This document shows positions 51,342-53,962 of a stretch of 64,000 nucleotides of DNA, one piece after another. The stretch lies in the NCBI RefSeq assembly GCF_001677475.2, contig NZ_CP015229.1; one strand, written 5' to 3'. Each line of letters starts with the position of its first letter. Within the stretch, counting starts at the first letter, position 1. Under the pieces are notes generated by a model. It was not told the DNA's origin, searched no databases, and was given only the letters and a program-made list of their open reading frames with translations. The stretch comes from Escherichia coli. Lineage in GTDB: Bacteria > Pseudomonadota > Gammaproteobacteria > Enterobacterales > Enterobacteriaceae. The translations under genes and the position numbers were made by a program.

Positions 51342-51794
51342 TTCCTTATTAGCTTGCTGTCTGCGTCACACTACGACCAAACGTTATCAGATTATTTAAT
51401 ACATTGTTTTTAATACAATTCTGAAACAATCTGAACACCTGATTGGGTTTGAGTCCATTGCTGGCTACCCACTCAAGGTTGCTCGTAGCTGACTTACTTA
51501 AATTACCCAAACAATAGACAGTGTAAACCATTTGTGAGGTTGAGCGTGTTATATGGCTGAAATGATCATTTAAGGTAAATATGATAGTTCTGAAATGGCG
51601 GGATAAATCCTCCTGTAGAGGTTAAGAGCATCTGCAAGAAGCCAGTTTCACATTTATAACGCGTGATAAATGAACGCGGTTATTGTCTAATCATTACAGA
51701 ATTTTTCACATGCAATAAGAGATCCTGCGATTAAGATGATTGCTAAAATTACATTGTATTTTTGAAAATGAGCGAAATTTGATAGTCCCAGCTT

Positions 51795-51823
51795 TGACTT
51801 TTGATAATATTATATATGCTACA
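51795..51823 (+). promoter_or_regulatory. Candidate sigma-70 promoter for the orphan 600-aa ORF
   Basis: TTGACT at 51795-51800 followed after about 16 nt by a TATATA/TATGCT -10-like element, in a very AT-rich leader. Confidence 0.25.
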
Positions 51824-51949
51824 GTTGTGGGTAAAGAATTTAAGCTAATGAGTTTGAGCGAAGAATAAATCAAACTGTATCAGTGTTTCGTTAATTAATA
51901 TGAGTATAAATGCGTTGTGCTTTTATAATAATAAAGCACGAGGAGTTCA

Positions 51950-53752
51950 GTGGAATATCTTTTCCCTTGGGTGATTTTTAATATGATAAACAATATATCT
52001 GATCAAGCATCATCATTTCCAGGCACACAACTGAATCAAAGTGATAATTTCCTCGATTCACTGAGGGAATTTTTCACGATATTAAATTCCAGTCGTAAGG
52101 GTGAGTTGTCTACATGGGACACCATCTACTTGCATCTGATATTAGCAATAAATGCTGATAGTGATCTCATAAAAAATGATGAGTTGCTAGCGGAAAATAT
52201 TCCATCAGCGAATTATCAATTTAATATTTTTTTTAGTAATGCTTTCGAGATTGATGTTAAAAAATATCTTGGCAAATCAGAAGATAACGAAGTTGAAATA
52301 AAAGTGGGTAATGAAAGAATTACCATTGGAATACGTAATGTATCGAATGGAAAACTTGAAAGACAACAGTTTATTTTCCCACTGGACTATGAGAATAAAT
52401 TACAACATCAATTAGACAAGCATTTTACGATTGAATCGCACCCATTATTATACAGGCATACCATTGGTAGTAAAATTGCGAGTGTGATTTTTGAAAAATT
52501 ATACAGTCGAATTGACTTTAACAAAGAACAATATATATCCTTTATAAAGGACGCGTTTATTCATTTTTATGATTATAGCAGGCGATATGCAATTAGTGAG
52601 AATATCGAAAAAGACGCTGTAACAAACAATATCGCATTGATGAACACTTTTTATGACAGTGATAATACGTCAGGTGAGGTTTTAAATAATGATTTTACAG
52701 AAGAAGAGTCATTTGAAACTGCGTTAGATGTAGAGCATACAATAGTGCTTGGATTTGCTGATGATAATTTTGAAACAAAACCTGTTCATTATCAGGATTT
52801 ATTAACACGATTTAGTGCCTTTCAAGATACCGTGTTTAATCTGTTTCCTGAAATGCGCTCTGCGCATTACAACGATATTTGTAGCGTAAGTGTGGATATG
52901 ACAAAGGGAACGCAATGCATGATCCACTTGATGGTGAATGAAGAAGTTTTCATGTCGTTGCCTGTTCCAGTTGCCACGATGGTACGTGAAGATGCAACTA
53001 ATTTAGTCAATCTTAAAACACTACTCAATGATGGTTGCTTTATTAAATATAGTCATTTTAATGACGTGGCATTAATAAAGCAAAACATAAATAATCTCCA
53101 TTTATCACGTACTATTGTGAATGAAAGTATATTGAAGAAGTGTTGCTTTGAAAACGGCAGTTTAGGTGATGTTAAAATAACAAATAGCAATGTAATAAAC
53201 AGTGTATTCAAAAATATTTCGTTTAGATCTGTTAAAATTAACAACGTAAATACTTATTCTTTAAAATTTATTAACTGCAATTTTTTCAATGTTGATATGA
53301 TAAGAGTTAATTTCAGTAAATGTCTTTTTCATGACTGTAGTATGCATGGTGTCAAGATAAAACCCTGGTTGCCAGTAAAATGGACAAAAGAATTAATAAA
53401 TGATTATTTGTATGGCTGTTTACTTTCACTGTATTCTATCTGTGTAAGAGATATATTTAATATGAACGCGGGGAATAACGTGAAGGTTGCAGCGGATGCT
53501 TTTCTTGAAATCCTTTTCTCTCTTAAGAATAAATATTGTATTAAACTATTAAACGCTCAAGAACGGGCGTTTATATACGAGTTTGCAAGAATGATTTTTG
53601 CATATATTAATGACAAAAATATTGAGATCTTATTACTTTCTTGTTTTGCCGAGGTCGATCAAAAAGCAATCCAGAGGTATGTTCCTCAGCCACAAGATGC
53701 GGAAAAATTTTGGAATAATTTACAGTATAAGTTGACTCTTTCCGCTCATTAA
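51950..53752 (+). CDS. Orphan 600-aa protein of unknown function with a central pentapeptide-repeat tract (about 16 pentads); AT-rich, apparently horizontally acquired
   Basis: Uninterrupted 1803-nt ORF; GTG start with AGGAG 4 nt upstream; about 28-30% G+C by my manual count of two 60-nt samples versus about 48% in ybjQ; repeats siLkk ccFen gsLgd vkItn snVin svFkn isFrs vkInn ... at aa ~393-470; no signal peptide or TM helix. Confidence 0.7.
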   Translation: MEYLFPWVIFNMINNISDQASSFPGTQLNQSDNFLDSLREFFTILNSSRKGELSTWDTIYLHLILAINADSDLIKNDELLAENIPSANYQFNIFFSNAFEIDVKKYLGKSEDNEVEIKVGNERITIGIRNVSNGKLERQQFIFPLDYENKLQHQLDKHFTIESHPLLYRHTIGSKIASVIFEKLYSRIDFNKEQYISFIKDAFIHFYDYSRRYAISENIEKDAVTNNIALMNTFYDSDNTSGEVLNNDFTEEESFETALDVEHTIVLGFADDNFETKPVHYQDLLTRFSAFQDTVFNLFPEMRSAHYNDICSVSVDMTKGTQCMIHLMVNEEVFMSLPVPVATMVREDATNLVNLKTLLNDGCFIKYSHFNDVALIKQNINNLHLSRTIVNESILKKCCFENGSLGDVKITNSNVINSVFKNISFRSVKINNVNTYSLKFINCNFFNVDMIRVNFSKCLFHDCSMHGVKIKPWLPVKWTKELINDYLYGCLLSLYSICVRDIFNMNAGNNVKVAADAFLEILFSLKNKYCIKLLNAQERAFIYEFARMIFAYINDKNIEILLLSCFAEVDQKAIQRYVPQPQDAEKFWNNLQYKLTLSAH

Positions 53753-53962
53753 TGTTGCTGGTACTACATAATACGACAGGTAAGCGGTGCCCTATAATGA
53801 AACTAATATCGGGTTATGCAACGGATAATCGTAAAGGCTTAAGTGGGTGTTTTTGACACAATGAGATGATTTCCTAAACTGATCAAAACCTTCTTCCCAA
53901 CATGGCATATCAGTCCGATAATGCTTTAGAGATCGAAGGCTTAACAAACAAGGAGATCGATC

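Follow-up and report, generated by a model that had tools for sequence, protein, structure and literature searches.

We characterized a single-gene islet that separates two divergently oriented core genes of Escherichia coli, ybjP and ybjQ, within a 64,000-nucleotide stretch of contig NZ_CP015229.1 (assembly GCF_001677475.2) that is referred to here as the window. The islet is approximately 2.5 kb in length, is AT-rich, and contains one gene, which encodes a protein of 600 amino acids (aa). It carries no mobility gene, transfer RNA (tRNA) site, insertion sequence (IS) end or repeated DNA. In its place we find what is probably the trace of an exchange between chromosomes, as the DNA specific to islet carriers extends into the coding region of ybjP, where it replaces the first codons with a foreign version. 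The islet is likely a segment that cannot move by itself, that was assembled elsewhere and swapped into E. coli by homologous recombination, and that has since been recombining among lineages of the species.

Locus and distribution of the islet

The gene order in the window is artJ, artMQIP, ybjP (minus strand), the insert, ybjQ (plus strand), amiD, ybjS and ybjT. The core lipoprotein gene ybjP occupies positions 50820–51335 on the minus strand in its 171-aa form (the mechanically defined open reading frame, ORF, extends to 51341), and was assigned using NCBIfam PRK10533 (equivalog, E = 1.5e-98) and the RefSeq annotation of homologous loci. The core gene ybjQ, a member of the UPF0145/YbjQ family, is found on the plus strand at 53963–54286 (NCBIfam PRK02877, E = 1.1e-65, and RefSeq annotations). 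The distance from the ybjP start at 51335 to the ybjQ start at 53963 is 2627 bp, compared with 125 bp in empty genomes such as K-12. The GC content of the insert is 0.25–0.39, versus approximately 0.53 in the flanks, and its sole long ORF (51950–53752, plus strand) is the 600-aa cargo gene.

To establish how the site is occupied, we took a census of 5426 complete E. coli genomes. The full insert is present in 1123 of these and the 125-bp spacer in 4295. Approximately six genomes are derivatives that are neither full nor empty, five of which keep part of the insert. In strain CUWW06, IS1B (locus L089, 4320–5084) stands in place of window positions 51669–53734 with both islet ends left, a secondary, IS1-associated deletion of the cargo gene in one lineage. 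In L091, an E. coli contig assembled from a metagenome, 51360–52300 is deleted. The carriers include O157:H7, O145:H28, an ST648 strain, Shigella sonnei and S. flexneri. Of the E. coli genomes, 5424 keep the artP-ybjP and ybjQ-amiD gene order, as do most of the 80 other species surveyed. A preliminary interpretation of the window, made from the letters alone (the sequence-only reading), had suggested a survey of other strains at this junction and had regarded the site as a variable hotspot within the core genome. The survey reveals essentially a biallelic site in E. coli, and not a multi-cargo hotspot; it is in Citrobacter, as described below, that the same spacer holds several kinds of cargo.

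We also scanned one genome per species outside E. coli and found ybjP at 80 loci. Short-spacer taxa among these include E. albertii, three other Escherichia lineages, Salmonella, Enterobacter, Kosakonia and Lelliottia, and in an alignment of the spacers of 10 taxa, conservation of the sequence extends from Escherichia to both Salmonella and Citrobacter. Because the cargo gene occurs in none of the 80 Enterobacteriaceae species representatives (one genome each; cryptic Escherichia and Citrobacter are among them), and nearly all have ybjQ 90–150 bp from ybjP, Escherichia and its relatives had the empty 125-bp spacer ancestrally, and the insert is derived.

A foreign ybjP 5' end marks a probably exchanged block

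The sequence-only reading had placed the insert at 51342–53962. These boundaries proved imprecise, as the haplotype-specific sequence starts inside ybjP at 51288 and ends at approximately 53907, some 55 nt before ybjQ. On the right side, identity between filled and empty haplotypes resumes at 53905–53908 (GC[A/G]TATCAG...) and runs through the promoter region and ribosome-binding site (RBS) of ybjQ. The alignment to an empty genome that had been proposed at the outset yielded both endpoints, and it revealed no target-site duplication of 2–14 bp at either.

Positions 51288–51335 (minus strand) are a foreign, xenologous 5' end of ybjP that spans codons 1–16, the signal peptide up to the lipobox. 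All carriers have one sequence here, 98–100% identical among themselves, which is 68–73% identical to every empty Escherichia allele, including that of E. albertii. The empty Escherichia alleles over the ybjP 5' segment, E. albertii included, are 90–98% identical to one another. The carrier segment still encodes MRYRSLSLLIPCALLLSAC, where the empty type encodes MRYSKLTMLIPCALLLSAC; the carrier residues 'LSL' are of the Citrobacter/Salmonella type, and Escherichia has 'LTM' at this position. A 68-nt probe of the foreign segment matched 1129 of the 5426 genomes at 98.5% identity, compared with 1128 genomes that contain islet DNA, and no empty genome matched it.

The adjacent portion of ybjP (nt 61–285) is represented in all carriers by one 'B-type' allele that is also found in approximately 1155 empty genomes, and all 1129 carriers fall in a single ybjP identity band, 80–90% to K-12. 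One empty haplotype (L001) is 99.1% identical to the window over nt 61–285 and then becomes empty-type from 51288. It looks as the recipient should, and is a candidate for the recipient haplotype. Junctions, foreign ybjP 5' end and ybjP allele background are common to all carriers, which shows a single origin of the islet in E. coli.

At each end the foreign block borders on a stretch that is conserved across genera; in ybjP this is AGTGCCTGTACCACCGTCACGCCAGCTTATAAAGA, and in the spacer it is TATCAG..GATAATGC. A block of approximately 2.6 kb that includes an orthologous piece of a core gene has replaced approximately 120 bp, which is the expected footprint of double homologous recombination with a diverged, islet-bearing donor. 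Insertion by an element would not leave a footprint that replaces part of ybjP. The recombination tract is visible because a foreign ortholog replaced the signal-peptide codons of a core lipoprotein gene. Over the foreign 89 nt that comprise the ybjP 5' end and the left spacer, identity is 85–86.5% to the Citrobacter freundii complex, 82% to the E. coli empty alleles and 80% to E. albertii, which is a weak hint of a Citrobacter-like donor.

Irrespective of the islet, E. coli strains are hypervariable in the 5' half of ybjP (51060–51287, nt ~55–285). The K-12 allele (L002) is 80% identical to that of the window over 51060–51287, with a sharp switch to approximately 99% at ~51060, and is itself an outlier relative to other Escherichia (78–84%).

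Search for mobility signatures

Searches of Pfam, PHROGs, NCBIfam and PADLOC with the ORFs of the insert gave no match to any family of integrases, transposases or phage proteins. Pfam identifies only pentapeptide repeats, in the 600-aa ORF, while the remaining three collections return generic pentapeptide matches or nothing for the islet ORFs; the PHROG matches are three families of unknown function, and cover the pentapeptide repeats only. ARAGORN detects no tRNA or transfer-messenger RNA (tmRNA) in the whole window, and Rfam likewise contains no tRNA or tmRNA match and nothing above threshold in or near the insert. The islet neighbours are the core genes artP, ybjP, ybjQ and amiD, and no recombinase gene adjoins it.

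The ends of the insert are similarly unremarkable. The best inverted match between the 100-nt end zones is 6 nt, equalled by 96% of shuffles. The best direct repeat within the E. coli ends matches at 13 of 15 nt (51405–51419 versus 53848–53862) and is equalled by 3.8% of shuffles. Folding of the conserved left arm gave z-scores of −0.3 and −0.8, and no structured RNA is indicated there. The absence of an integrase, transposase, IS end or tRNA at the flanks, which was the central observation of the sequence-only reading, is borne out by all of these searches. Its companion statement that there are no obvious direct repeats holds as worded, but a vestigial motif repeat probably exists, and can be seen through comparison with Citrobacter.

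The islet also behaves as single-copy chromosomal DNA. The 600 nt upstream of the ORF occur at 1129 places in 1128 genomes (median one per genome), never on plasmids and with no annotated feature beneath in these carriers. The whole insert has no blastn match among 50,697 phage records. Among 72,556 records labelled as plasmids there are only three matches, all chromosome-sized, mislabelled E. coli records, and these three are also the only matches for the longest open frame of the left arm.

Allele divergence and recombination

The cargo genes of the window and of the L005 class share 72% aa identity, with a synonymous divergence (dS) of 0.52 and a ratio of nonsynonymous to synonymous divergence (dN/dS) of 0.29. 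For the same pair of genomes, dS is 0.17 for artP, 0.11 for amiD, 0.26 for ybjQ and 0.16 for ybjP. L005 is the only divergent cargo allele class found; its protein cluster has 387 members, and 19 complete genomes lie in the corresponding 80–90% identity band. The left arm of the islet is approximately 92% identical even in this class (91–93% between allele classes over 51300–51660), compared with 70–85% for the ORF.

The window is 100% identical to strain 7/2 over 51323–51922 and 84–90% identical to it over 53423–53822, where strain 1190 matches instead. The islet alleles are mosaic and recombinant. The excess of cargo dS over that of the flanks and the decay of the boundary repeat support an old islet. 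The earlier suggestion of an old or recombination-delivered islet, as opposed to a recent mobile-element insertion, is supported by the foreign ybjP 5' end, the mosaic alleles and the cargo dS.

Two further patches of divergence were observed in the flanking genes. In artQ (48723–48922) there are 28 mismatches in 200 nt to strain 7/2 within a flank that is otherwise approximately 99% identical, which is probably another short recombination tract. In ybjQ (54063–54162) there are 10–12 mismatches in 100 nt to K-12 and L005, and one to O157 (L004); ybjQ, too, occurs as distinct alleles, without strict linkage to the islet.

Inserts in Citrobacter and the boundary repeat

The ybjP-ybjQ spacer of Citrobacter contains at least four cargo sets in addition to ERIC-like inserts. 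The genes csp and ymcF occur alone in one genome (L021, 1.1 kb), together with an AppA-like histidine phosphatase gene in two (L012 and L014, 3.1 kb), and together with a QnrB allele in C. gillenii FP75 (L013, insert 3779–6001, 2.2 kb). The QnrB allele is qnrB89 (phmmer E = 3e-134 to QnrB1). C. gillenii UMG736 (L012), of the same species as FP75, has the histidine phosphatase in place of qnrB89. A further genome (L018) carries genes for a DUF1706 and a CxxCxxCC protein in the spacer (1.6 kb). No recombinase gene is found in any of the Citrobacter inserts. By eye, the inserts of approximately 125 bp in five Citrobacter and Lelliottia loci (L023, L025, L028, L069 and L049) resemble ERIC/IRU elements (ERIC-like pattern ...ACTTCAAGTTGC..TGCGTTGGC..CACCCCAGTCAC..CTCCTGGGGATTCAC...), as does the left end of the L018 spacer.

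In L012, L013 and L014 we identified an imperfect direct repeat of 19–31 nt (19–29 nt in L012 and L013) whose copies are spaced exactly one insert length apart; in L014 it matches at 25 of 31 nt (2903–2933 versus 5935–5965). The repeat duplicates the most conserved motif of the spacer, which in window orientation reads TGAACAAT....CCTTTCAATGAT.GT.TA. The E. coli insert starts at the same nucleotide as the Citrobacter inserts (after ...TATC(A/G)G, with ATTA following). The next ~16–36 nt are similar as well, ATTATTTAATACATTGTTTTT in E. coli versus ATTAACACATTGTTTT in Citrobacter, with p = 0.002–0.04 in local-alignment shuffles that are not independent of one another.

The window itself retains what appear to be remains of the same duplication. 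A decayed copy of the full motif (CTAAACTGATCAAAACCTTCTTCCCAACATGGCATATCAG) lies on the right at approximately 53874–53913, the counterpart of the native spacer motif ...ATATCCTTTCAATAATAGCGTATCAG. On the left, an 8–14-nt remnant (CCAAACGTTATCAG) is found at 51377–51390 (...GTTATCAG versus ...CATATCAG), without the internal stretch of ~17–24 nt that is present in the Citrobacter left copy. A single copy of the motif fits the length of the empty site, as 41 nt on the left, a motif of ~40 nt and 49 nt on the right come to ~130 nt, versus 125 nt in the empty spacer. From these comparisons the E. coli islet probably has a vestigial boundary direct repeat, which argues for age and not for recent mobility. 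We infer that a single old insertion, in which the motif was duplicated, may be the common ancestor of the E. coli and Citrobacter inserts, and that their cargo turned over later. The left arm was also considered as a decayed csp/ymcF pair of the kind found in Citrobacter, and tblastn finds no match.

Features of the insert

From left to right, the foreign ybjP 5' end is followed by a non-Escherichia version of the left spacer (51336–51376), which was delimited by the alignment to 10 taxa, contains the ybjP RBS and TTATTAGCTTGCT..., and ends in a conserved CTACGA block. Beyond the left repeat remnant is the conserved non-coding left arm (51391–51660), the first ~20 nt of which are the segment compared with Citrobacter above. 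The AT-rich region upstream of the cargo gene (51661–51949) was defined by composition and a consensus scan and contains a promoter-like site at 51779–51808. A GAGGAG Shine-Dalgarno sequence precedes the GTG start of the cargo gene. The 3' non-coding tail (53753–53873) contains the right copy of the 13/15 repeat, and the consensus scan identified no terminator-like site in it. To the right of the decayed repeat copy, the native right spacer (53914–53962, plus strand), which is common to empty genomes, includes the ybjQ RBS. It is near-identical in filled and empty genomes, and is conserved into Salmonella and Citrobacter. A promoter-like TTCCCA-17-GATAAT precedes ybjQ, the −10-like hexamer GATAAT being at 53917–53922.

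A 60-aa ORF on the minus strand of the left portion (51349–51531) was rejected as a gene. The L005 substitutions alter approximately 7 of its 60 residues, the L092 sequence has a stop codon in it, and it has no family match in Pfam or PHROGs. An exact 10-mer, ATGATTTCCT, at 53866–53875 matches the ybjP start and RBS region of empty genomes (the K-12 spacer); the window's own left copy reads ATCATTTCCT. The match may be due to chance or may be a trace of a longer duplication. A simple deletion between these 10-mers was considered as a source of the empty site, and the resulting lengths do not fit the empty spacer.

The cargo protein

The cargo protein has pentapeptide repeats at aa ~366–475 (Pfam PF13599/PF00805), an N-terminal region without recognisable relatives, and a helical C-terminus. 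An AlphaFold2 model reaches pLDDT values of 70–89 only for aa ~380–595 and is poor for aa 1–379; the confident parts are a beta-helix (aa ~380–475) and the C-terminal helical region. Foldseek returned beta-helices only (the SV2 luminal domain, NleL/SopA and Qnr/MfpA), with full-length TM scores of 0.1–0.2. The model predicts that the cargo is a pentapeptide-repeat beta-helix protein.

A search of 1.84 billion cluster representatives identified one full-length cluster and fragments, and the remaining matches are generic pentapeptide matches that cover aa 356–509 only. All of the named relatives are from E. coli or Shigella, and by this search the cargo appears to be an orphan restricted to these organisms. 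Metagenomic sources are also represented in the searched collection, and they yielded no distant relative. Two sets of apparent relatives did not hold up. A divergent fragment with 79% identity (L090), considered as a possible donor lineage, corresponds to the E. coli L005 allele class at 99.8%. Among the low-identity fragment clusters that could have been distant relatives, at least one is frame-shifted E. coli DNA. The L092 fragment is 92.8% identical at the nucleotide level.

Because dN/dS is 0.29, the alignment indicates that the cargo has been kept as a functional protein-coding gene. RefSeq lists it as a pseudogene in strains 1190, 7/2 and Z1814. We rejected this assignment for 1190 and Z1814, in which the ORF is intact at 599–600 aa; the strain 7/2 sequence translates without an internal stop. 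PGAP describes the gene as 'incomplete, missing C-terminus' or splits it in two (L003, 2648–4450; L004, 2660–4459; L088, 4634–5839), and a 599–600-aa ORF is intact in L003 and L004. The pseudogene calls look like an annotation artefact. In O157 Sakai the counterpart of the cargo is ECs_0949 and ECs_0950, which are split by a stop codon and unnamed.

Several possible functions were considered. One database submitter labels a cargo relative 'putative type III effector'. The cargo is not EspX2, the member of the EspX family used for comparison, as espX2 (ECs_0876) lies between rhlE and dinG in Sakai and the best BLASTP match has E = 0.59. A defence-system role finds no match in PADLOC, and the NCBIfam HalA model scores 22 bits against a cut-off of 250. 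The cargo has sequence matches in the PDB to Qnr and AlbG with E = 0.04–0.75, and a tblastn match to QnrB89 with E = 0.009 over 38 aa. However, a protein of 600 aa with repeats only at ~366–475 is not of the Qnr/MfpA type, whose members are ~200 aa and almost entirely repeat.

Other features of the window

In O157 Sakai, genes for a transporter, a phosphotransferase system (PTS) IIB component and a sulfatase (L006, 5232–8392; ECs_0940–0942) are inserted between rlmC and artJ; in the window the distance between rlmC and artJ is 28 bp (~46683–46710), and the three genes are absent. A second stretch of lower GC content (0.37–0.46) is found at 20000–24000, where ORFs of 808 and 442 aa lie downstream of a four-gene ABC (ATP-binding cassette) transporter cluster. 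Rfam matches above the gathering threshold are the small RNA RybB (35022–35100, minus strand), naRNA4 (47620–47700, plus strand), which lies between artJ and artM, and ES036 (4691–4733, minus strand).

Origin of the islet

We propose the following history. The islet would first have been assembled in another enterobacterial lineage, possibly a Citrobacter-like one, in which DNA inserted at a fixed point of the conserved spacer motif, duplicating ~30–40 bp in direct orientation, and the cargo later turned over. Double homologous recombination may then have copied a block of approximately 2.6 kb, from codon ~16 of the donor ybjP through the islet to the ybjQ promoter region, into an E. coli chromosome. 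The crossovers would have occurred in the two stretches conserved between genera, at the ybjP lipobox and mature N-terminus and in the TATCAG...GATAAT portion of the spacer. Housekeeping recombination through the flanking core genes could since have moved the islet between E. coli lineages, erased it from others, and shuffled its alleles. The left copy of the repeat would later have lost its middle, and with it any former site-specific mobility would have gone.

A number of points weigh against this history. No donor has been found, E. coli and Shigella being the sole known sources of the cargo. At ~48 nt, the foreign ybjP segment is so short that its divergence of ~30% has a wide error. The affinity of the 89-nt segment to Citrobacter rests on approximately four extra matches. 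The homology between the E. coli and Citrobacter insert ends is short, and their right-internal ends are not significantly similar.

The alternative that best survives is a direct insertion into an early E. coli, by an illegitimate or site-specific event, followed by vertical descent and loss of the islet from most lineages, with no import of a foreign ybjP. A single origin with identical junctions in all carriers, the deeply diverged islet alleles, and a cargo known only from E. coli and Shigella would all be expected from such a history. We nevertheless consider it unlikely. It leaves unexplained why ~48 nt of ybjP, with a divergence of ~30% and Citrobacter/Salmonella-like residues, should lie beside E. 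coli ybjP sequence that is 99% identical. In addition, the empty genomes have the exact spacer of the outgroups and an Escherichia-type ybjP 5' end, so that loss of the islet would require homologous replacement and not deletion.

Somewhat less probable still is that the islet is, or was until recently, a small integrative element that uses the ~30–40-bp spacer motif as its attachment site and a recombinase supplied in trans. Imperfect motif repeats of 29–31 nt do flank three Citrobacter inserts one insert length apart, different cargo (qnrB89, histidine phosphatase, DUF1706) lies between common ends, and the insertion point is identical in E. coli. However, there is no recombinase gene in or beside any of the inserts, the repeat copies differ at 19–28% of positions, and the E. 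coli left copy is without its middle. The islet is found at no other site in any genome and never on a plasmid or phage. Additionally, no block of the spacer is more conserved than the duplicated motif, so both copies may persist because each flanking gene needs one. A broader form of the same idea, to which we give an equally low probability, is that the spacer motif ...ATATCCTTTCAATNATAGNGTATCNG is a family-wide attachment site for an undescribed class of small, recombinase-less cassettes that swap cargo, using a recombinase in trans or some other mechanism. If so, the E. coli pentapeptide-repeat orphan, qnrB89, the histidine phosphatase and the DUF1706 gene would all be members, each with a 30–40-bp duplicate of the motif at its boundaries and with an insertion point identical to the nucleotide.

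A recent insertion of an IS, transposon, phage or plasmid that later lost its mobility genes is highly improbable: the low GC content and the CUWW06 carrier, in which IS1 replaces most of the islet, could be read in its favour, but the islet lacks a transposase, an integrase, terminal inverted repeats and a short target duplication, the DNA is single-copy with no phage or true plasmid match, allele divergence is far above that of the flanks, and the IS1 event is a secondary deletion in one of approximately five derivative genomes.

Relation to known systems

Horizontal-transfer spots that are devoid of mobile elements and turn over through double recombination in the core genes on either side were described in 2017 (PMC5635113). 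Like the islet, these spots lie between conserved core genes, have no integrase, transposase or tRNA, and differ in gene content at a single spot; they also show a recombination signal in the flanking core gene, and housekeeping recombination is sufficient to explain them. However, the hotspots in that study were defined statistically and have many transferred genes per spot, and the E. coli site, with one gene and two states, would be a coldspot there. The islet is also unlike those spots in that its tract, visibly inter-generic, has overwritten a core gene's 5' end, and in that multiple cargo is found only in Citrobacter.

In E. coli O157, the espX2 islet (ECs0876, S-loop 57), which lies between rhlE and dinG, is likewise a single AT-rich backbone gene without mobility genes, and it encodes a large protein of the pentapeptide-repeat class that is absent from K-12. 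It differs in being another protein at another locus. The chromosomal environment of qnrB89 in C. gillenii FP75 has been published as atypical, with the neighbouring genes described and the repeat and the shared site not discussed (PMC7996913). It has the same spacer and insertion point as the islet, a pentapeptide-repeat cargo and no mobile element. However, its 214-aa Qnr, csp and ymcF are unrelated to the 600-aa ORF, and its boundary repeat is intact. Classical tRNA-associated islands and integrative elements have in common with the islet an atypical composition, a presence/absence polymorphism and possibly flanking direct repeats. Unlike these, the islet has no integrase and no tRNA or tmRNA, is 2.5 kb in size, has a decayed repeat, and occupies an intergenic site in a promoter region.

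Public genomes carry annotation of the islet, but a search of the literature for ECs0949 or ybjP-ybjQ found nothing relevant. New here are the exact tract, whose left end lies in ybjP, the census of 5426 genomes, the cargo's orphan status and its deep alleles, and the insertion point and vestigial repeat in common with Citrobacter. The mechanism is the one already proposed for gene-transfer spots free of mobile elements, and current concepts are unchanged. It is essentially right to regard the islet as ordinary, old and recombination-borne, the product of a known and fairly ordinary route of bacterial gene gain.

Two cautions apply to work on this gene, as PGAP labels intact copies of the cargo as pseudogenes, and the cargo should not be confused with espX2. 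For future surveys, 68 nt of ybjP provide a simple marker of the islet. The locus offers a nucleotide-level example of how a gene without mobility functions enters a species and circulates in it. Since the same position in the spacer holds qnrB89 in C. gillenii, the site also bears on the parking and exchange of chromosomal resistance genes.

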